The position numbers and the translations under genes are program-made. The notes under the pieces were generated by a model, which was given only the letters and a program-made list of their open reading frames with translations, did not search any database and was not told the DNA's origin. DNA of 64,000 bases from a virus (lineage: Duplodnaviria > Heunggongvirae > Uroviricota > Caudoviricetes), in the IMG/VR virus record IMGVR_UViG_3300037400_006466, positions 108,098 through 172,097 of that record; one strand, written 5' to 3'. Below, in pieces: positions 4,372-48,978 of the stretch. Position 1 is the first letter of the stretch. Each line of letters opens with the position of its first letter.

Positions 4372-4379
4372 ACTAATTT
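4372..4379 (+). promoter_or_regulatory. Putative late promoter ACTAATTT, 4 nt before the spike ATG (leaderless)
   Basis: GACTAATTTTTCTATG; same spacing at 16336 and 32760. Confidence 0.6.
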
Positions 4380-14910: not shown

Positions 14911-14918
14911 AAATTAGT
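14911..14918 (-). promoter_or_regulatory. Putative late promoter ACTAATTT
   Basis: aaattagt on + strand, just downstream of a terminator and upstream of the 758-aa gene. Confidence 0.6.
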
Positions 14919-16298: not shown

Positions 16299-16327
16299 AT
16301 AATACTATATTTCATTTTAATTGTCAA
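16299..16327 (-). promoter_or_regulatory. Sigma70-like early promoter
   Basis: CTA-TTGACA-17nt-TATTAT followed by ATGTAAGGAGA leader. Confidence 0.7.
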
Positions 16328-16347
16328 TAGCCTTGACTAATTTTTTC

Positions 16348-16698
16348 ATGGAAAATAATGAAGAAAAGAAAGAAGAAAAGACTTTTCTAGAGAAATTGAA
16401 GGACTTCTTTGTAGGGGTGTGGAACGTCATCAAGAAGCTTTTCATCCCTGTAGTGGCTCTCATTACCCTTATCTCTGTGTCCAAAAGGCAGGATGCCAAG
16501 AAGGAGATTAAAGAGGACAAGAAGGAGATAAAGGAAGAGAAGAAGGAGATAGAGAAGGAATCCAAGGAAGTCGAGAAGAAGGAAGAGGAACTGGAGAAGA
16601 AAGAGGAAGCTATTAAAGAGGAGATAGAGAAAGATAAATCCTCACAGGAACAGAAAAAAGAGGAATTGGCTGACTTTCTTCCAGGATTGAAAAGGTAA
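16348..16698 (+). CDS. Inner-membrane-anchored coiled-coil protein, i-spanin-like (116 aa; start reassigned to ATG 16348)
   Basis: Single hydrophobic segment LFIPVVALITLISVS then a K/E-rich coiled coil; ACTAATTT 4 nt upstream. Confidence 0.5.
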   Translation: MENNEEKKEEKTFLEKLKDFFVGVWNVIKKLFIPVVALITLISVSKRQDAKKEIKEDKKEIKEEKKEIEKESKEVEKKEEELEKKEEAIKEEIEKDKSSQEQKKEELADFLPGLKR

Positions 16699-16702
16699 AT
16701 AT

Positions 16703-17191
16703 ATGTTAAGGAAAATGATTGCAATGACCCTCCTGTTGTGTCTGGTGGGGTGTCTGTGGGCTGCCACAACTTTTGACATAGATACAAAATATGGAAAGGA
16801 GCAGGTTGTGATTCCAGACGGATACACAGCTGAGGAAGTCCTGCTCATAGTTGCCAAGAACTATTATGAGTTGAATCATGAGCATGAGGAACTGCTGATT
16901 AAGGCAGAAGAACTCAACAATTCATTGGCTGAATATGTGGAGTTGAACAAGTCATTGAGGGAGAAGTATGATGCCCTCATACTTGACTATGATGCTCTTG
17001 TCAAGAAAGTGGAGAGTTACGGCAAATGGTCCAACTTCAAGGGATTCGTGAGCGGCTCCGTGACCTACAACTTCAAGGACACCTATGGATTCGGAATATC
17101 AGCAGGTATGTTCCTGTTCAACAAGACCCTACTGACCGTAGGGGTCAATTTCCCGTTCAGCATCGGAGTAGGTGTGGGATTTGTAATCTAA
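16703..17191 (+). CDS. Exported coiled-coil protein with C-terminal amphipathic beta strands, possible spanin partner (162 aa)
   Basis: Signal peptide MLRKMIAMTLLLCLVGCLWA (contains an LVGC lipobox-like motif), heptad region, C-terminal alternating hydrophobic strands ending GVGFVI. Confidence 0.45.
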   Translation: MLRKMIAMTLLLCLVGCLWAATTFDIDTKYGKEQVVIPDGYTAEEVLLIVAKNYYELNHEHEELLIKAEELNNSLAEYVELNKSLREKYDALILDYDALVKKVESYGKWSNFKGFVSGSVTYNFKDTYGFGISAGMFLFNKTLLTVGVNFPFSIGVGVGFVI

Positions 17192-17198
17192 CTAATTA
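17191..17198 (+). promoter_or_regulatory. Putative late promoter ACTAATTA
   Basis: Intergenic, upstream of the AAGGA SD of the tagged-gene cluster. Confidence 0.6.
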
Positions 17199-17218
17199 AA
17201 AGATAAGGAATAATGATT

Positions 17219-17809
17219 ATGAAAGCTTGGAAAGACAATAATATGTTGCTTAGAGAAGGTGGAGTCAGTAAAAAGATATCCTCTAAAGTTGATAGATTAT
17301 TCGGGTATTTGAATAAGCATTCCCAGAAATGGCCTGAGATATATGAATATTATTATGATGGATTGGAGAATGGTCTCAGTGATAAGTGGAGAGATACATT
17401 AGATTGGATAGATGAACCGTCAGAGGGTCTTAAAGTTGCTCTTTCAAGAAGATTGAAATATAATGGCCAATTTATTCCTATGTCATATATTGCCATTCCT
17501 AAAATAGATTTATATCTTCCGAATAACAGTAAGGATTACTATGGGAACGGTAAGTTGAATAAGCTTTCCCAGGAAGTCATAAACAAATTCATTTCAAAGG
17601 TAGAAGAAGATTCCGACAGATTCATATTCTTGGATAATGCTGAGACTGAAGGTGTTATTGAGTTCTGTTTGGAAAGTGAAGATTTTCTTGATAAGACTCT
17701 TGAATGGTTTGATAAGTATTATTCAGAGTTTGAAGATCTTTGGAAAAGATTCCTTGGATATAAGAGATTGGATAAGAATGCCATAATGGAAGATGCCTTA
17801 CTGTATTGA
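17219..17809 (+). CDS. Hypothetical protein with N-terminal MKAWKDNNMLLRE tag (196 aa)
   Basis: Tag shared with the next two genes; SD spacing favours ATG 17219 over 17213. Confidence 0.65.
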   Translation: MKAWKDNNMLLREGGVSKKISSKVDRLFGYLNKHSQKWPEIYEYYYDGLENGLSDKWRDTLDWIDEPSEGLKVALSRRLKYNGQFIPMSYIAIPKIDLYLPNNSKDYYGNGKLNKLSQEVINKFISKVEEDSDRFIFLDNAETEGVIEFCLESEDFLDKTLEWFDKYYSEFEDLWKRFLGYKRLDKNAIMEDALLY

Positions 17810-17819
17810 GGATAAAAAG

Positions 17820-18044
17820 ATGAAGAAAGCCTGGAAAGACGATAATATGTTGCTTAGGGAAGGAAAGACAAGCGGCAACACCCATTATAAGTTCATCAAG
17901 GACGGAAAGACCTATTATGCCATGGGTGACAATCTCATAGATGCATGCAACTCAATAGAGATATCAGAGGGCATAAGTCTTGAAGGTGCTTCCTATGAGG
18001 AAATATATAAGCTCAGAACAGTAAGAAAAGGAGTGGTCAGATAA
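17820..18044 (+). CDS. Hypothetical protein with N-terminal MKKAWKDDNMLLRE tag (74 aa)
   Basis: Start reassigned to ATG 17820 (GAGGA SD); tag conserved at DNA level. Confidence 0.7.
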   Translation: MKKAWKDDNMLLREGKTSGNTHYKFIKDGKTYYAMGDNLIDACNSIEISEGISLEGASYEEIYKLRTVRKGVVR

Positions 18045-18045
18045 A

Positions 18046-18375
18046 ATGAAGAAAGCCTGGAAAGACAACAACATGATACTCAGAGAGAACTATGGCGAGG
18101 ATTACTCCGATATCCCAGAGGTCAAAGGTATAGACTATAAGGAACCTCCAAGATATAATATGATGCCTGGAATCAGGAGCATCAGAGGATTCGTCTCAGC
18201 CCTCGAAAAGACAGGATATGACAGGTTCAAGATAAGGGCAAGCAGATGTCCTGTATCATTGGGTGACCTCAAGGACTCATGGATGGACTTGGGAAGATAC
18301 GGATGGTCATACAGCAGAACATGGGACAGCTCAATGTCAGGATTCAATGAAGTCTATATATTCTCTAAGAGATGA
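18046..18375 (+). CDS. Hypothetical protein with N-terminal MKKAWKDNNMILRE tag (109 aa)
   Basis: Third tagged gene, 1 nt after the previous stop. Confidence 0.7.
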   Translation: MKKAWKDNNMILRENYGEDYSDIPEVKGIDYKEPPRYNMMPGIRSIRGFVSALEKTGYDRFKIRASRCPVSLGDLKDSWMDLGRYGWSYSRTWDSSMSGFNEVYIFSKR

Positions 18376-18379
18376 AAAT

Positions 18380-18405
18380 AAAAGACCACTTTTCAGTGGT
18401 CTTTT
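18380..18405. terminator. Bidirectional intrinsic terminator
   Basis: AAAAGACCACT-TTTC-AGTGGTCTTTT between convergent genes. Confidence 0.85.
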
Positions 18406-18423
18406 TTCTTTAAGGAATCAGGA

Positions 18424-18726
18424 TTATTCTTCGTCCTCTTCATCTTCATCATCTTCTTCTTCATCCTCATCATCTTCATTACCAGCAAGATATTGGGAAT
18501 CAAAGTCATTCATTCTGCAGATATAGGCAAGAATATCACCCAAGTCATATGTTCCCATGGCTCTGACGATGCTCTCAAGGAGCTCCTCAGCACCGAAGGC
18601 TTCCTTCATTTCCTCATAGAGGTCCCAGATATTGTCATAAGGGACTTCCCAACCGTAATCTTCCTGGAATCTTCTGCCTGATTCATTCAGCTTATTATTG
18701 CTTTTCCATGTACTCTTATTCTTCAT
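18424..18726 (-). CDS. Acidic protein with divergent tag MKNKSTWKSNNKLNE (100 aa)
   Basis: Start reassigned to ATG 18726 (GAGGAGG SD); poly-D/E C-terminus. Confidence 0.7.
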   Translation of the reverse strand: MKNKSTWKSNNKLNESGRRFQEDYGWEVPYDNIWDLYEEMKEAFGAEELLESIVRAMGTYDLGDILAYICRMNDFDSQYLAGNEDDEDEEEDDEDEEDEE

Positions 18727-19204
18727 CTTCTTCCTCCTCATCAGAACCGAGTTCTCGTTCAATGATGTCATAGACTTCATCATAGTGAGTGTCTATTTTT
18801 CCGTTCCAATCATCATCAATCTCCCCGTCACGGAGGGCCTGTAAACATACCTCAACAACATCTTCGGGAATCTCGTCTCCATACTTGTCACAGAGGGCAC
18901 CATAGACAACGATATCAGGAATGTGATCTTCCATATCTCTTTCAATCATTACATATTCAGCCATCTGTCCGGCCTTGTAGAGGTCGCTTCCACAACCTTC
19001 CCAACCGAACTCAGCGATTGTATCATTGACTTCATCAACATGCTCACTGATGAATTTGATTATATCATTGTAATAAATGGAAGTGCATCCGTCAGCAATC
19101 TCGCTGATAGTATCACAAAGATAATTGCTACCATTGTAGCCGTTATCAATTTCAGTACCATAGTCACCAAGGTCAAGCTTATCTGCCAATTCGTTTTTTG
19201 TCAT
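18716..19204 (-). CDS. ocr: Ocr-like (T7 gp0.3-like) DNA-mimic anti-restriction protein (162 aa)
   Basis: DTISEIADGCTSIYYNDI aligns by eye with Ocr DAIHMAADNAVPHYYADI, and DLYKAGQMAEYVMIERD with DVIRILQARIYEQLTID; about 48/162 residues D/E; acidic tail. Start reassigned to ATG 19204 (GGAG SD). Confidence 0.7.
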   Translation of the reverse strand: MTKNELADKLDLGDYGTEIDNGYNGSNYLCDTISEIADGCTSIYYNDIIKFISEHVDEVNDTIAEFGWEGCGSDLYKAGQMAEYVMIERDMEDHIPDIVVYGALCDKYGDEIPEDVVEVCLQALRDGEIDDDWNGKIDTHYDEVYDIIERELGSDEEEEDEE

Positions 19205-19240
19205 ATATTTTACTCCAAAAATTAATTTCAAGTTGTATCT

Positions 19241-19248
19241 TAATTAGT
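19241..19248 (-). promoter_or_regulatory. Putative late promoter ACTAATTA
   Basis: Directly after the sbcC stop, upstream of the Ocr-like gene. Confidence 0.55.
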
Positions 19249-27845: not shown

Positions 27846-28709
27846 TTAAAAGATAATACTTGCTGGGTCATCCCATCTTGTATATAGATGGCAGTCAGGT
27901 CTCAGAATCAGATATCTGATTTCATCAGTATTCTTTTTGGCCATACAGTCACTGTCTGCAACAGTTCCAACCCCCTCAAGTGAGTACTTTGTCATTCCAT
28001 AGGGAAGTGTCTCCAGAGGAGTACCGTTCATTCTGATGTACTGGAAGTAATCATCATCCTTATATACATTACAGTGATTAATAATCCATTTGTCCTGTTC
28101 ACAGTCCTTTCCAGACTTGTACAGTTTCCTGAGAGTTACCTGGTCTGCGTCATAGACCTGTTTACACACTCTTAGAATTCCTGCAGTGTCCAAAAAGTGA
28201 TAGAAAGAATCATTCAGATTCAGAGACAGTCTTAACAGGCATCCTGCTTCCTTGATATTCCTACAGAGCTCAACCAGCTTTATCTGATTAAGTGAGTCCT
28301 TATTTCCAATAATTCTATTGTTCTCTTCATCATCAAAGCTTGATACTGAAATGGAGAAGGTATTGATTCCAAGCTGTGCAAGACTGAGGATATCTTCTTT
28401 TTCAAGTCCTCTACCAGTTGTCTGAATTTCAATATTGTTGAAAAGATTTTCAGGAAGAAGATTATTGAAGAACCTCTTAAGGAAAGGCAGATTCTGTTGT
28501 GGTTCACACTCACCTGTCAACATCAGAGTTGTGCATCCTAAATCTCGTGCATATCTTAATGCTTTCACATACTTGCCATGAAAGGTAAAGAACTCCTCTG
28601 ATATCCTGTCAGGATATGTTATGTCCTCATGTGTCCTTGACACACAGAACTTACAATTGTTGATGCATTTCTTTCCAGGAACAACTACACTTAAACTCTG
28701 AATTGCCAT
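27846..28709 (-). CDS. Radical SAM enzyme 1 (287 aa)
   Basis: CINNCKFC (CX3CX2C), LTGECEP, IQTTG; start reassigned to ATG 28709. Confidence 0.9.
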   Translation of the reverse strand: MAIQSLSVVVPGKKCINNCKFCVSRTHEDITYPDRISEEFFTFHGKYVKALRYARDLGCTTLMLTGECEPQQNLPFLKRFFNNLLPENLFNNIEIQTTGRGLEKEDILSLAQLGINTFSISVSSFDDEENNRIIGNKDSLNQIKLVELCRNIKEAGCLLRLSLNLNDSFYHFLDTAGILRVCKQVYDADQVTLRKLYKSGKDCEQDKWIINHCNVYKDDDYFQYIRMNGTPLETLPYGMTKYSLEGVGTVADSDCMAKKNTDEIRYLILRPDCHLYTRWDDPASIIF

Positions 28710-35628: not shown

Positions 35629-35823
35629 TCATTCAGTTGCCTCCTCTGGCTCTTCAATAGGCTCGTCCGTCTCCGTGTAGCTGTACTTGAGAGGCTGCAC
35701 GTCGATGGCCTCGGAATACTTGGCGCCTGTCTGGTCCTGTACGATGTAGTTCCCCTTGTCCGAATAGGTCCTCAGAAGGATGACCCCATCCGGTCTGGTC
35801 TTGAAATACTCTGTCTCTATCAT
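35629..35823 (-). CDS. Small tail-fibre-associated protein (64 aa; start reassigned to ATG 35823)
   Basis: [22 protein letters not shown]...GAKYSEAID...YTET; ATGA overlap with the LRR gene. Confidence 0.6.
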
Positions 35824-37310
35824 GCTGTGGCCTCCTCCATTATCGATGCGAATGTTCTCCAGTTGGTTGCAGCCTGATATGCGGTGAGAGTTCCTGCTGG
35901 GACGATGATCTTCTGCTGATAGCTTGTGCTGAATGCATTGGCGCTTGAGAGCGTAGGAGGTGTTGTAGGCTCCAATATGACGGTGTAGAGGGCGTAACAG
36001 TTCTGGAATGCACTGTTCCCTATGCTCGTGACACTGCTCGGGATCGTGATGCTCTGGAGGGCGCAACAGCCACTGAACGCACTGCCTCCTATGCTCGTCA
36101 CACTGCTCGGGATCGTGATGCTCTGGAGGGCGTAACAGTTATAGAATGTACTGCCTCCTATGCTCGTCACACCGTCTGGGATCGTGATGCTCTGGAGGGC
36201 GTAACAGCTATAGAATGCACTGCCGTCGATGCTCGTGACACTGCTCGGGATCGTGATGCTCTGGAGGGCGGAACAGTCACTGAATGCACTGCCTCCTATG
36301 CTCGTCACACCGCTCGGGATCATGATGCTCTGGAGGGCGGAACAGTTCTGGAACATAGTGCCTCCTATGCTCGTCACACCGCTCGGGATCGTGATGCTCT
36401 GGAGGGCGGAACAGTTCTGGAACGCACTGCCTCCTATGCTCGTCACACCGTCTGGGATCATGATGCTCTGAAGGGCGGAACAGTTCAGGAATGCACTGCT
36501 CCCGATGCTCGTCACACCATCTGGGATCATGATGCTCTGAAGGTTGTAACAGCTACTGAACGCATTGGTCCCGATGCTCGTCACACTATCTGGAATAGTG
36601 ATGCTCTGGAGGGCGTAACAGTTCTGGAATGCACTGCTCCCTATGCTCGTAACAGTATTTGGATAGTATACACCCTGTACCTTCGTAATATATTTTCTAA
36701 AGGAAGTGGAGCTCTTTCCAAAACCGATGTATGCACTTGTTGAATCTATCACACAATGGAACAGCCCAGCACTTGTATAGACATGGTAGACATCACCAGC
36801 CGAGAAACTCTCTGTGGCGGAGCCATCACCCCAATCCACAGTACCGCTTGCCTGTGCGTTAAACCACACACCGTTGCCGTCCTTGTCTGTCGTGATATTG
36901 AAGAACGCGTGTGTCTTGCCGTCAGTTGTGTGGTAGTTCGCTCCGACGTTTATGATCCCGTCTGGGTAGTCAGTGTGGTGACTTTGAATCTGTGCAAGAG
37001 TCCAGTTCCAGCCGTCGAATGTCAGAGGAACCTCGTCTGTGCTGTGGTCAGGAGCATCTGGCAATGAGGCTAGTCCTGCAATCTCGCTTGCGGCAAACGA
37101 GGCGACAAGGGTCCCCTCGTAGTCGTAGAAGTTCAGGAGCTTCTCGGTCACCGCACCACCACTACCTCCACCTGAAGGAATGCTGTCCACCAAGGCTGGA
37201 TATGCATCCAGCTTGGCATCCGATGCCACGGTCACGCCCTTAGCTTCAATTGAAGTTTTCAAATCAGCTTTCGCTGTCTGTAATCTCGTGATTTCTGTTG
37301 CTATAGACAT
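35820..37310 (-). CDS. BspA/TpLRR-type leucine-rich-repeat receptor-binding protein (496 aa)
   Basis: [15 protein letters not shown]-terminus; NFYDYEGT and FDGWN segment; ten 23-aa ITIPxxVTSIGxxAFxxCxxL repeats; TTPPTL cap. Confidence 0.8.
35980..36665 (-). repeat. About 10 tandem 69-bp coding repeats (LRR units)
   Basis: GATGCTCTG at 36048, 36117 and onward to 36600 with exact 69-bp period. Confidence 0.95.
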
Positions 37311-37321
37311 AAACTATCTCC

Positions 37322-39463
37322 TTATATGGAAGCCAAGAGAGTCTCAATGCTACCGATTTGAGTGTCAACGTAGTTGTATACTTGATCCCCAGTGGTAAAT
37401 CCAGCTTCATTAGGTGCTATATCAGTTGCTGTAGGAATAAACTTTTTATCAATTTGGTGCACTAATCCTGCTGAACCTGATTCTATACATTTAATGTCAT
37501 AATCCCTAACTGAAGAGTCAAAGAATAACTTAGTGTATACGTAAGTTACCTTATCAGTCCCTGAACTTTTTTCAGTTCTTATTTGAGTTTCTTCAACTAT
37601 CACAAATGGAGCACCAGGGTTAGATACTTCATAATCAGTGACATCAATATAAGGTTTCACCCTGGCATGCTCAGGCATATATGTAGTAAGATAGTAATTT
37701 TTAGCTAAATTCAAGTTACCAGCATACTTTAATTTTGCCTTGAAATCATAGTCGCTATCTGAATAATACGTCTCAAACTCACCTTCTTTTATACTAGAAG
37801 TATAAGTTGTTCCATTTATCATGAAGGTAATCTCAGATTCACTGGTATCCAGCAATCTATTTTCAGGCAATAATTCATCTATGTGACCAAAACTATCACC
37901 ATACATAGATATCAACTTAAAATAATTAACTGGAGCTGATATAGGAAGTTTATACTCATCGGGATTAGATACATCTGGACTTTTTAGTGAGAATGAATAT
38001 GAATTGTCAGTTAGACATGTAACTTCAAATTCAGTTAGATCGTAATCGTATGTGTATAGAGTTGCCGTTAAGTTAAGGTCGGCTTGGTCATAAATTGAAT
38101 GAGTAATTAGTAAGAATGGTAATCCAGTAGTATCTGGAATTAAACTATAAGTTAAGTTACCTAGCTTATCTATGCTCATACCACCACTACTCTCATGAAC
38201 GGCTGTTATGTTTTCATATAAATTGCCATTATATCTAACGTTGTATACGTAATCTGCACGTAGAGGTTTACCTATATAATTATCTAAACTAATATCTATT
38301 TTATTTTTGTAACCTCTCTGAGCTGGATCAAGATTTTGAAGAGGTTTATCTCCTCCAGTTACTAAATTGAAGGTATACGGATTGGTATCAACCTCTGTTT
38401 GGTTAGAATATGTAGTGACTGTACCTAGATCATAGTTATTAAGTACAACTAGATAGTCACCTGCATCTCTGGTAGCTAAAATTAGGAATCCAGGTCCAAT
38501 GGCTATAGCAAAATCATATTCTGTATCTCTTTCAGGTACCAGTTCAGTCATTTCACCTGGAAGACCTTCAGATGCCAGTATTCCCTTGATAAGAGCTCCA
38601 TTACCTAAATATGTCAATGGAAGTGTTTGTGCAAGGTCAGGTACGTCCCAACATTCTAAATTATAAACAGTCCCATTGATAGATACCGGATATGCATTAC
38701 CTACTACCAGCTCATCACCGCCATACTGAGGTGGGTCATTCACGTCACTAACAGCAAAAGCATTTCTCACTACCCCTGTATTCTTGATGACCAATGTATG
38801 CTGACCTGCAGTTTTAGTCAGAAGCCAGGTACCATTAGAAGTCCAGACTATAATGAAAGGCAATGAATTGTCATATGCCACGTCACCAGAATGATCTGAC
38901 CATAATAAGTCTAGATTACCACAGCAGAATACCAATTCATCTGTTGTAATAGAGTCAAGTGTGCAAGTCACAGAATCAAAACATGCATTATGGTACAAAG
39001 TACCATCTAACGTTATATCGTAATAATGGCTAGAAGGTAAAAATTCAGCCCATCTATCGTAAAGGTCAACAATGCCGTCATTACCTCTGAAATCACCTAC
39101 AATGTGACCATCAAATTCAGGGAGAGTGACCTTAGTGGAATAAAGCTCAATTGGAGTTGGACTCTCCTCCCAATGAGTTCTATTCTTCACATAGGACTTG
39201 GCTTCGGCATCATTCTCATTCCAATCAGCTTGGACTTGAGATCCACCGCTACCGCCAGCTGGAACTGCCCATGTTCCGTCTTCCCTAAGGTACTTTGTAG
39301 AACCTGCAGTTGCACCTGGATCGGGAACAAGACCCTTACTATGGTCATTTCCAGAAGCTCCAAAGACAGAATCATCTGCCTTTGCTCCAACAGCACTACC
39401 TATATAATCTTTGATTTTTTGGTCATAAAGTGAAAGACCTTGAATGTCTAAAAACTTCTTCAT
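37322..39463 (-). CDS. Tail fibre / receptor-binding stalk protein (713 aa)
   Basis: MKKFLDIQGLSLYDQKIK head, YLREDGTW, QADWNENDAEAKSYVKNRTH, C-terminal GDQVYNY...IGSIETLLASI; ACTAATTA upstream at 39492-39499. Confidence 0.65.
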   Translation of the reverse strand: MKKFLDIQGLSLYDQKIKDYIGSAVGAKADDSVFGASGNDHSKGLVPDPGATAGSTKYLREDGTWAVPAGGSGGSQVQADWNENDAEAKSYVKNRTHWEESPTPIELYSTKVTLPEFDGHIVGDFRGNDGIVDLYDRWAEFLPSSHYYDITLDGTLYHNACFDSVTCTLDSITTDELVFCCGNLDLLWSDHSGDVAYDNSLPFIIVWTSNGTWLLTKTAGQHTLVIKNTGVVRNAFAVSDVNDPPQYGGDELVVGNAYPVSINGTVYNLECWDVPDLAQTLPLTYLGNGALIKGILASEGLPGEMTELVPERDTEYDFAIAIGPGFLILATRDAGDYLVVLNNYDLGTVTTYSNQTEVDTNPYTFNLVTGGDKPLQNLDPAQRGYKNKIDISLDNYIGKPLRADYVYNVRYNGNLYENITAVHESSGGMSIDKLGNLTYSLIPDTTGLPFLLITHSIYDQADLNLTATLYTYDYDLTEFEVTCLTDNSYSFSLKSPDVSNPDEYKLPISAPVNYFKLISMYGDSFGHIDELLPENRLLDTSESEITFMINGTTYTSSIKEGEFETYYSDSDYDFKAKLKYAGNLNLAKNYYLTTYMPEHARVKPYIDVTDYEVSNPGAPFVIVEETQIRTEKSSGTDKVTYVYTKLFFDSSVRDYDIKCIESGSAGLVHQIDKKFIPTATDIAPNEAGFTTGDQVYNYVDTQIGSIETLLASI

Positions 39464-39561
39464 TACATTATTCTCTATAAAGTATGATATTTAATTAGTT
39501 CTGATTACAATAAAAGTAAAGCCTTCCATAAAGAAGGCCTATATCTATAATTCATAATAAT

Positions 39562-40134
39562 TTATGATTGGCTGACCCAAACAGGTGCAGAGGGAGATTC
39601 CAGATTAGTGACATCTATCAGATATGTTCTGATTTCAGCTTTCCATTCATTGTCTTTTTGTACAATCAGATAACAGTCATATGGAGCTGTGAAAATGTGG
39701 TCTGGTGTCTCATTTGTTTTCCAGGTAGCGCCAGCAGAAGGGTTGTCACTTTTGACAATGAGCTTTCCAGAAATGTTTGAACTTACTGAAGTTGGGTCAG
39801 TGGTACAGTACATAGCTCTGAATCTTTTTCCAGGAATACAGATATAACACATATACTTGTGATTGGCAGTCAGAGTATATATGTCATTCATTGCACCAGC
39901 TGGAGCCTGATAGGTCCATGTTACATCTGCATTGAATGTGGAAGTTGAAGCGTTTATGTATCCGTATTGATAACTTGAAACATAAGGTCTGACCAAAGTA
40001 GGCATACCGGTAATGATAGATGGCAGGTCTTCAGTCTTTACATTCTCAGGTAGTACATTTCCATATGTTGTCAGAAGGTCCTCAAACTCTTCTTTAGCTG
40101 TTTGTAATCTTTGTAGCTCTGATGTTATAGACAT
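39562..40134 (-). CDS. Tail-fibre tip-like protein with MSITSELQRLQTAK N-terminus (190 aa)
   Basis: N-terminus shared with the two LRR proteins; beta-rich body similar to the middle of 40143..41585. Confidence 0.55.
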   Translation of the reverse strand: MSITSELQRLQTAKEEFEDLLTTYGNVLPENVKTEDLPSIITGMPTLVRPYVSSYQYGYINASTSTFNADVTWTYQAPAGAMNDIYTLTANHKYMCYICIPGKRFRAMYCTTDPTSVSSNISGKLIVKSDNPSAGATWKTNETPDHIFTAPYDCYLIVQKDNEWKAEIRTYLIDVTNLESPSAPVWVSQS

Positions 40135-47035: not shown

Positions 47036-47911
47036 TCAGGAGAGCATCCTGACCTTAAACCCACCTTGGATAGTTCCAGGAATAGGGACCATCTTGTTCT
47101 GGTTAATTACGATTTCCTTTGACTTCTCATTCTTCAGGAGTTCCCTAATCTCATTGAGAACTCTTTCTGGAGTAAGGATATAATTCTTCACATCCTCACG
47201 GAAATGGGTCTGACTCACCTCTTTGTTGTAAGCACTGATAGCACTCTTTCTCATAAGGAAATGAATTCCACCATGAGTGAGAATAGCAACACTGGAGAAA
47301 ACATTGCCAAGAAATTCAGCATAGAATTTATTATGGAAATGACTAAGTAGCATCTTGGCCAAATCTTCCCTATGGGATTCATCACCCTCGATATCACAAT
47401 CAATATCAATCCACTCATCCCTTCCGTTCTTGGGATTCTGGAAAGCCTTAAGAACACCTTCTGTACATGACTTGTACTGCCTGAGGAGATTAGCCCTCTT
47501 TTCAGTATTTCCAAATTCAAGAAGGGTCATGGTATCAGCATCCCATCCGGCCATAGTTTCCTTGAATTCCTTGATGGCTTTGACTACACTTGTGTGATTC
47601 ACATTCATGTACATGACAAAACACTTCTTGGGAATGTAGTTGTCATTGGAATCAAGGACGAATTCAGCCATGGCATCAGCCTGCCTGATTTTGCTGAGGA
47701 ACTTCGGCCAGTTGTAATCCTTGAGAACTGTCTTACAGAGCATGACGGTATCACCCATCTTTATCCTATACTTCTCTTCTGCATTAAGATATTTCCTTCT
47801 TGAAGCAAGACAGAAGAAATCAACATCGGATAAGTCTCTTTCAGTATTTACTATGTCATAGAACTTTTTGAGTTCTTCTTCTGACCAAATAAGACTCTCA
47901 GCCATAATCAT
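47036..47911 (-). CDS. Putative archaeo-eukaryotic primase (AEP) superfamily protein (291 aa)
   Basis: WIDIDCD (hhDhD), THGGIH (motif II-like), MVPIPGT (motif III-like). Confidence 0.45.
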   Translation of the reverse strand: MIMAESLIWSEEELKKFYDIVNTERDLSDVDFFCLASRRKYLNAEEKYRIKMGDTVMLCKTVLKDYNWPKFLSKIRQADAMAEFVLDSNDNYIPKKCFVMYMNVNHTSVVKAIKEFKETMAGWDADTMTLLEFGNTEKRANLLRQYKSCTEGVLKAFQNPKNGRDEWIDIDCDIEGDESHREDLAKMLLSHFHNKFYAEFLGNVFSSVAILTHGGIHFLMRKSAISAYNKEVSQTHFREDVKNYILTPERVLNEIRELLKNEKSKEIVINQNKMVPIPGTIQGGFKVRMLS

Positions 47912-48978
47912 ACCTCATAGAACGGACAGGTTCTGCAGTGACATTCATTCTTGTCACACGATTTGAGCAGGAGTTCCTGAGTGAGAAGGGTCTTGGGATT
48001 TCTCCAAATCTTCTCAAGGAACTCCTCAGTGGAATTACATTCAAGGACATTCAGTCCTGTAGTCCAGTCAACTGGGGTATCACATCCCTCAGCGAATGAA
48101 CATGGGAAATACTCTCCCTTGACATTGATATATGAGCTCTGTAATCCAGCGGCCTCACAATCAAGGACATTGCCTTGAATATACTGACCGAATGACCTCA
48201 GTGCCTTCAAGGAGTTACATGAATCAAATCCGATTCCGATATTGTGCTCCTTGGCGAAATTACAGAGAACATCAAATCTGTCCTGTGGAAGGACATGGAA
48301 TCCCACACCCCTACCCTTTGTCTTGAGTCCGAGAAGGACGATGGCATTGAGCTTGGAGAGTCTTGGGTCAGTTACAATGTCATTGAGGGTCTCAAGACAT
48401 CTGTCATATGTCTCCATGGAAATCATGTAGTGCATATTGACCTGCTCCATACCTCTGTCTGTCAGTCTCTTGACTGTATCATAACAGGCATCCTTGTCCT
48501 CATATCTTGATACGGCAACTGCACCACAATACTTGGCGAGCTTATCAGCGGTATCATCATCACAATATCCGAGAGTGATATTGGGAATCACAAGATTCTC
48601 CCTTGCATATTCCATCATTTTCCAAAGGTCAGGATTGGCTGTGAGGTCATAGTCTGCTCCGAAAGCCACCTGTGTGAGTCCCTTACTCTGAACATCAAGA
48701 ATCCTCTTGAAGGTCTCAAAGGACATATTCACACCATTCCTTGTGTTGGACTTATAACAGAAAGGACACCCATGCTTACAGATGGTGGTGATTTCAAGGT
48801 CAAGAATATTGTTTATCGGACTGATAACAGGATCATCCTCAAGGGTTCTTCCCCACGATACCATACATCCGTCTTTCATGTTGAAGATATAGTTATAGTC
48901 CTTGCTCTTGAAGAGCTTGTTGTTTCCGTCTATGGCCACCTCGTAGCCGAATCTGTCAGATTTCTCAATCAACCGCAT
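47908..48978 (-). CDS. Radical SAM enzyme 2 with SPASM/twitch-like C-terminus (356 aa)
   Basis: CKHGCPFC; C-terminal CEAAG...YINVKGEYFPCSF...C...CHCRTCPFY. Confidence 0.9.
   Translation of the reverse strand: MRLIEKSDRFGYEVAIDGNNKLFKSKDYNYIFNMKDGCMVSWGRTLEDDPVISPINNILDLEITTICKHGCPFCYKSNTRNGVNMSFETFKRILDVQSKGLTQVAFGADYDLTANPDLWKMMEYARENLVIPNITLGYCDDDTADKLAKYCGAVAVSRYEDKDACYDTVKRLTDRGMEQVNMHYMISMETYDRCLETLNDIVTDPRLSKLNAIVLLGLKTKGRGVGFHVLPQDRFDVLCNFAKEHNIGIGFDSCNSLKALRSFGQYIQGNVLDCEAAGLQSSYINVKGEYFPCSFAEGCDTPVDWTTGLNVLECNSTEEFLEKIWRNPKTLLTQELLLKSCDKNECHCRTCPFYEV

Follow-up and report, generated by a model that had tools for sequence, protein, structure and literature searches.

Nine small proteins encoded by one tailed phage begin with the same short peptide and then continue into bodies of differing sequence, and a tag of this kind, under selection to judge from its codons, calls to mind the capsid-targeting sequences of T4. 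The phage is a single IMG/VR virus record (IMGVR_UViG_3300037400_006466, Caudoviricetes) of 284,702 bp, approximately 96% complete and with 40% G+C, and the stretch under study, referred to below as the window, is its bases 108098–172097, 64,000 nucleotides in all. Four of the nine genes lie together at 17191–19248 of the window and five are elsewhere in the genome. The shared peptide is about 14 residues long and has the consensus M-(K/N/R)-K-x-W-K-(D/N/S/E)-(N/D/E)-N-x-(L/I)-x-E. What is it for? A signal for capsid targeting and cleavage, of the T4 type, is the best reading of the sequence evidence and fits better than the alternatives, and we would give it an even chance of being right.

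A prior sequence-only reading of the window had counted four tagged proteins, and all four are indeed at the locus; genome-wide, a strict pattern, looser searches and a profile bring the number to nine. Their starts, in genome coordinates, are 125316 (+), 125917 (+), 126143 (+) and 126823 (−) at the locus and 49947 (+), 53202 (−), 61360 (−), 7192 (−) and 98999 (+) for the others, so that tagged loci are spread across 120 kb. In six frames the strict pattern has four matches, every one within 16 residues of the start of an open reading frame (ORF), where a rough composition estimate gives a chance expectation of about 0.2 matches, and it was this search that revealed a fifth copy of the tag. 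The profile, run over six frames of the whole genome, scores the nine ORF starts at 18–34 bits and the next best match at 6.4 bits; as it was built from the same nine tags, it is the strict pattern search that serves as the independent check. Pattern and profile searches found no internal copies in the genome, the tag being solely N-terminal. All of the tagged proteins are small, 74–196 amino acids (aa), a size range like that of T4 IPI–III, and their tags end in L/I-x-E in seven of the nine genes and in F-N-E and M-N-E in the remaining two.

At the locus itself the layout is as had been described, with three tandem plus-strand genes, a convergent fourth, ACTAATTA motifs and a bidirectional terminator. 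The plus arm is preceded by an ACTAATT promoter-like motif at 17191–17197 (+; ACTAATTA), 22 nt 5′ of the first tagged ATG. Gene 1 (17219–17809, +; 196 aa, N-terminus MKAWKDNNMLLRE) has homologues, of 77–92% identity, in rumen metagenome assemblies only. Gene 2 (17820–18044, +; 74 aa, N-terminus MKKAWKDDNMLLRE) has a GAGGA Shine–Dalgarno sequence 8 nt 5′ of its ATG, and is followed by gene 3 (18046–18375, +; 109 aa, N-terminus MKKAWKDNNMILRE); the bodies of all three are without a known family. On the other strand is gene 4 (18424–18726, −; 100 aa), whose N-terminus, MKNKSTWKSNNKLNE, leads into a helical hairpin and a poly-Asp/Glu tail. An intrinsic terminator at 18380–18405, with an 11-bp stem and T runs on both strands, is common to the two convergent arms.

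Is it the DNA or the peptide that is kept? Conservation of the tag at the DNA level had been claimed, and this did not hold up. A codon-by-codon table of 17 tags, nine from this genome and eight from relatives, contains frequent synonymous differences (GAC/GAT, AAT/AAC, TTG/CTT/CTC/TTA, AGA/AGG and GAA/GAG) with the residues constant, and W, K and one N are invariant in the fourteen tags that were aligned. Conservation starts at the ATG, and upstream sequence and spacing differ between copies. With synonymous codons varying freely and residues held constant, the tag is, on this codon evidence, a peptide signal: what is under selection is the peptide and neither DNA nor RNA, and the tag is no recent copy.

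Close relatives of the phage are found only in rumen metagenome assemblies (ENA ERZ28653761, ERZ28654105, ERZ27318042 and ERZ27298210; Logan SRR094926 and SRR094437), and those compared at the locus are four short contigs (including L026, L027 and L028) and one contig of 286,877 bp (L029), in all five of which the locus is recognisable at 74–92% protein identity. The proposal that the bodies are interchangeable finds support in them, as bodies are exchanged behind a constant tag. L027 and L028 have, in second place, the same tag joined to a different body of 175 aa, which replaces genes 2 and 3; in L026 only genes 1 and 2 are present, the tag of its gene 2 being shorter by one Leu and retaining L-R-E; and in L029 the orthologue of gene 3 (MKTWKDNNMLLRE...) is the sole tagged gene of the plus arm. 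Exchange also extends to parts of bodies. The product of the 53202 gene (L014:7663–8202, −; 179 aa) and a 224-aa homologue, P0019, have their first ~122 residues in common and differ in their C-terminal modules, so that, by this comparison, payloads are shuffled internally as well as swapped whole. With the eleven orthologues of gene 4 it is the body that is kept and the tag that varies (WKSNNKLNE, WKDNNKLVE, WNKNNSLSRIKE, WKELQKLNE, WKETHKLKE and WKTNNSLGKLTKLNE), W-K and a hydrophobic-x-E junction persisting, with the hydrophobic-x-E always directly N-terminal to the body.

None of the nine tagged bodies has a family match in Pfam or PHROG, and with one exception they have no mutual BLASTP similarity. 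Their having been called unrelated stands by BLASTP among the four at the locus; it does not extend to the whole genome, as the helical hairpin of gene 4 recurs C-terminally in the tagged gene at genome 53202 (hhalign 92%, E 5.6e-7). Nor do they agree in composition, the charge of the bodies running from −27 to +5. Could the tag be part of one folded domain which all the proteins share? The AlphaFold2 model of gene 4, made with its orthologues, has residues 1–20 at pLDDT ~50, helices at 30–72 with pLDDT ~90 and a disordered acidic tail; the model of gene 1, with the tag as a low-confidence helix (pLDDT ~41), is too poor to judge or to search with. In the one confident model, that of gene 4, the tag is predicted to be detached, outside the folded body and not part of a shared folded domain. 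A Foldseek search of viral structures with that model gave no match below E 5, and an Atlas feature search with genes 1 and 4 gave no usable lead.

Candidate T4-type head genes were traced in the genome through gene order near a terminase-like gene, PHROG 207, Portal_T4 and Atlas. A gp20-like portal gene at genome 63643–65775 matches Portal_T4 (PF07230) with 29 bits, against a cut-off of 22.9, and the next gene (genome 65871–67874, +; L015:5871–7874) encodes a gp21-like protease-scaffold protein of 667 aa, placed in phrog_207. All 21 homologues tested match phrog_207, ‘head maturation protease’, in the N-terminal domain (best E 1.8e-13, with E 4.8e-6 for the protein of this phage), the protease domain spanning residues ~44–207, and nr has one homologue under the name ‘Prohead core protein serine protease’. 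Alignment with T4 gp21 by hhalign, over 114 columns (P 0.008), puts NGNGRIY/NRNKRLY, DHP/NHP and GTSSSGFGKL/GVSSRGLGSL in register, the latter two of which hold the catalytic His and Ser of gp21. As the remainder of the protein is coiled coil, it is, by its predicted architecture, a head protease fused to a coiled-coil scaffold, and its membership of the gp21 family is probable. More than 250 homologues of the protease-scaffold are present in metagenomes, many on contigs of 150–280 kb. A gp23-like capsid protein (genome 74537–75901) is of lead grade, coming from an Atlas feature search (0.96, with 219 features common with Gp23 clusters). In the 21 protease-scaffold homologues L/I-x-E is overrepresented 2.35-fold (26.5 occurrences where 11.3 are expected), the control motifs in the same family having ratios of 0.99 (L/I-x-K), 0.72 (L/I-x-Q), 0.71 (V/A-x-E) and 1.61 (the reversed motif); L-x-E-S is conserved at residues 32, 43, 207 and 624 and L-A-E-A at 609, and so on both sides of the protease domain. 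Pfam models for the HK97 protease, ClpP, HK97 capsid, sheath, terminase 6C and Baseplate_J had no matches in the whole genome, and PDB sequence searches with six structural candidates and the protease profile gave nothing useful. Complex prediction with the tag alignment and the full protease-scaffold alignment scored 0.00 without controls, which counts neither for nor against.

The tagged genes also have a promoter-like motif in common with the head genes. ACTAATT is the most enriched upstream 7-mer, 25-fold, and of its 66 genome copies 52 are intergenic, although intergenic DNA makes up just 8.7% of the genome, and point at the gene that follows; promoter-like and strong, this phage motif has no −35 partner, examples in the window being at 4372–4378 (+), 16336–16342 (+), 14912–14918 (−) and 39493–39499 (−). 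Nine genes (for instance those at window 4384 and 16348) have their ATG exactly 12 nt after the start of the motif, a spacing which suggests leaderless mRNAs. It is directly 5′ of the portal, protease-scaffold, sheath-like (phrog_34521, E 3e-5) and tail-fibre-like genes and of one gene of the baseplate block, and it is kept upstream of portal genes in relatives whose protease is only 57–64% identical. Five of the nine tagged genes have it directly 5′, within ~45 nt, and the other four are downstream in units led by it. In a crude operon walk all nine tagged genes are in ACTAATT units, compared with 178 of 360 genes overall (P ~0.002). A second class, with host-type TTGACA-N17-TAtaaT promoters, often with TG before the −10 element (e.g. 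window 16299–16327, −), precedes 22 genes, all on the minus strand, among them small genes, a radical-SAM gene, a MoxR module and one member of the MKIRKGFVSNSSSSSF tag family considered below. None of the nine tagged genes has a sigma-70-type promoter before it, and exclusively early transcription is thus not what their promoter sequences indicate. The Shine–Dalgarno sites are strong (AAGGAGA), and together with the host-type promoters they favour a host that uses promoters of the sigma-70/sigma-A type over one from the Bacteroidota.

How might it work? Nine small, fast-evolving proteins would be made from the phage's ACTAATT-type promoters, alongside the portal and the protease-scaffold. The first ~12 residues, with their W-K-D-N-N core, would dock them onto the assembling prohead core, the gp21-like protease would cut the tag off after its terminal hydrophobic-x-Glu, and the mature bodies would remain in the head and enter the host along with the DNA. 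If the tag alone is needed for loading, bodies could be exchanged freely, and the tag-coding stretch may act as a recombination joint. Docking, cleavage, packaging and injection are our inference, and for the role of the payload, host takeover or counter-defence in the manner of T4 IPI would be a guess by analogy. That the tag targets proteins to the capsid had been proposed at the outset, and the proposal finds support in part, from the T4-type portal, the gp21-like protease, the gp23-like capsid protein, the L/I-x-E endings and the shared ACTAATT.

Several points weigh against this T4-like reading. Virion location, cleavage and injection are predictions, drawn from the sequence of a phage known from metagenomes alone. 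The tag is found only in close relatives, which makes the comparative support narrow: its profile, set against 1.84 billion representative proteins, had six matches at E ≤ 0.001, all of the phage's own lineage, and the head-module flanks of two more distant relatives, with proteases 57–64% identical, had no WKDNN tag and no obvious replacement within 10 kb. By these comparisons the tag is lineage-specific. The T4 capsid-targeting sequence presumably has no sequence similarity to the tag here, the two being alike only in an M-K start, an aromatic residue at position 4–5 and an x-E end. The link to gp21 consists of a PHROG family and one weak profile alignment (hhalign probability 4.9%), and the Pfam models of gp21 (PF03420) and gp23 (PF07068) had no match in the whole genome. 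Enrichment of L/I-x-E is partly expected in coiled coils rich in Glu and Leu, the reversed motif itself being 1.6-fold enriched. ACTAATT units, as delimited by the crude operon walk, also hold non-structural genes (RtcB, a helicase, NrdD), and for that reason ‘not early’ is a safer description of the class than ‘late’. Lastly, in the shortest tags among the gene 4 orthologues the Glu coincides with the body's own conserved Glu, and what is conserved there may be the EDYGW motif of the body and not a cleavage site.

The strongest rival accepts the tag as a peptide and gives it another reader: the W-K-D-N-N core would be bound by some partner other than the prohead, such as a target in the host, a chaperone of the phage, an enzyme that modifies the proteins or a protease that sets the time of their turnover. 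A peptide that is selected, N-terminal and outside the folded body suits any linear-motif function, and nine or more proteins of the phage do begin with a second tag, MKIRKGFVSNSSSSSF, unrelated to the first. However, none of the nine loci is linked to a gene for a candidate partner. Were a radical-SAM maturase the reader, tagged genes might be expected beside it, yet the two radical-SAM genes of the window (27846–28709 and 47908–48978) adjoin none of the nine loci, the distance to any tagged gene being at least 9 kb, and the former has an early-type promoter. Nor does docking onto some other partner account for the hydrophobic-x-E ending, or for an ACTAATT held in common with the portal and protease genes. 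On balance we regard it as unlikely.

Less probable again, and to our minds a long shot, is that the tag has no sorting role, and is a portable ‘gene start’ spread by recombination or the remnant of an ancestral small gene whose bodies have diverged. Close relatives do exchange bodies behind a constant start, the ACTAATT within ~45 nt upstream of five of the nine genes could be part of what travels, and two of the bodies have a module in common. Against this, it is only from the ATG that the copies are alike, and synonymous codons that differ while the residues, with W, K and N invariant in the fourteen aligned tags, do not, are the mark of purifying selection on a peptide and not of recent copying. 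The same synonymous-site pattern makes an RNA-level element, a translation-initiation or regulatory site over the first codons, scarcely credible: the three tandem copies had been read as alike at the DNA level, and Lys-rich, A-rich codons right after the start are common in well-translated genes, yet third-codon positions vary freely in the nine copies and in relatives with the amino acids kept, and the distance from the ATG to the Trp codon ranges from 3 to 6 codons.

Returning to capsid targeting, what would follow from it? Our broader proposal, a tentative one that we hold with less than even confidence, is that a lineage-specific loading tag, unlike that of T4 in sequence, lets a very distant jumbo phage of rumen bacteria with a T4-like head carry at least nine exchangeable injected effectors, with the tag-coding DNA as the swap joint. 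If so, capsid-targeting tags would be general in phages with gp21-type proteases, re-invented, predictable and readable from genomes, and a shared N-terminal peptide with a head-protease motif and a head-gene class of promoter would be a genome-only signature of co-injected proteins. Of all phage proteins, host defences encounter the injected ones first, and in metagenomic phages these otherwise go unseen; the nine bodies without a family would then rank high in any search for new functions in host takeover or counter-defence in rumen phage–host systems. The tag could also be used to load foreign proteins into such capsids, as the signals of T4 and P1 are. Even if capsid targeting is wrong, the tag would still be a selected linear motif with a reader of some kind.

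The surroundings of the tag array merit description. The first gene of the minus arm (18716–19204, −) encodes an untagged, very acidic protein of 162 aa with a Glu/Asp tail; it overlaps gene 4 by 11 nt, and an ACTAATT promoter-like motif is at 19242–19248 (−; ACTAATTA), 37 nt 5′ of its ATG at 19204. It had been called Ocr-like and taken to fit a counter-defence role, a label that now appears weak: its match to phrog_3460, of which the function is not known, has E 6e-5, that to the ‘ocr-like’ phrog_2568 only E 0.034, and a PDB sequence search with it had no Ocr match. Of the relatives, L028 and L029 have the gene and L027 lacks it. A similarity between it and gene 4 was considered and rejected (hhalign E 0.05). 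Directly upstream of the array is a spanin-like pair. The product of 16321–16698 (+) has one membrane helix, a charged coiled coil and Rz-like PHROG matches (E 7e-4), and that of 16703–17191 (+) has a signal peptide and an LVGC lipobox-like site; should the two be spanins, an outer membrane would be expected in the host.

Other N-termini are also shared in this genome. The second tag, MKIR(K/N)GFVSNSSSSSF, is at window 23868, 46014, 63265 and 63738 (all −) and on at least six genes at genome 185–201 kb. Like the WKDNN tag it is an N-terminal peptide common to nine or more unrelated proteins, but its sequence is another one, it has no hydrophobic-x-E ending, and at least one member (genome 196053–196955) has a sigma-70-type early promoter, unlike every WKDNN-tagged gene. 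Two further shared N-termini, MKKFLDIQGL.../MEKFLDKNGL... and MSI(A/T)(T/S)E..RL(Q/K)(T/N)AK..., head large proteins, some of them leucine-rich-repeat proteins of the BspA type, and have the look of attachment modules common to tail fibres; the genes bearing them are at window 37322–39463, 35820–37310 and 39562–40134 (all −) and at genome 238926–240464, 252872–254491 and 260025–260327. As to more distant kin, the locus has no DNA match and the protease no tblastn match in the GenBank phage collection, and a search of IMG/VR for related loci, with gene 1, the SbcC-like neighbour and an alignment of that neighbour as queries, yielded no relatives. Ten matches from an IMG/VR DNA-pattern scan for K-x-W-K-D-(N/D)-N-M were all internal and were set aside as chance.

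Where does this leave the phage among systems in which proteins are known to travel in the head? In phage P1 the first 30 residues of DarB are enough for a protein to be taken into the capsid and delivered along with the DNA (PMC9024508), and the Dar anti-restriction proteins thus resemble those here in that an N-terminal signal would route a protein into the capsid. They differ in that the signal, as far as that account of DarB goes, is described for one 250-kDa protein, with stepwise loading, and not for a tag on many small proteins, and in that the same account describes no Glu-specific cleavage motif, and they have no homology to the proteins here. In phiKZ, 201phi2-1 and SPN3US, gp21-related proteases (gp175 in phiKZ) cut many head proteins after Glu, with a very short motif (PMC9026906). 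These too are large phages with a gp21-like protease and with propeptides on head and inner-body proteins, but in the part of the source that deals with them the propeptides are not described as one shared sequence tag, and the phages carry virion RNA polymerases whereas the phage here has host-type sigma-70 early promoters.

It is T4 that offers the closest comparison. Its gp21 cleaves after L/I-x-E, and an N-terminal propeptide of 10 residues serves as its capsid-targeting sequence (PMC9026906); with IPIII, ten residues from the N-terminus are enough for targeting (PMC9026906, PMC3012670). The tag here is somewhat longer, ~14 residues, and is on nine genes over 120 kb as against three or four in T4; the protease is fused to a scaffold in a protein of 667 aa, and the phage is a very distant 285-kb rumen virus known from sequence alone. 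Against these differences, the phage also has gp20-, gp21- and gp23-like head genes, and both tags end in hydrophobic-x-Glu, the gp21 motif (PMC9026906). As with IPI, IPII, IPIII and Alt, which are cleaved by gp21, a short N-terminal peptide is borne by small, otherwise unrelated, fast-evolving proteins. T-even internal proteins are highly diverse behind their conserved capsid-targeting sequence, as stated in the passage of Rao and Black that cites Repoila et al. 1994 (PMC3012670), and polymorphic bodies behind a conserved tag are what the rumen phage and its relatives also display.

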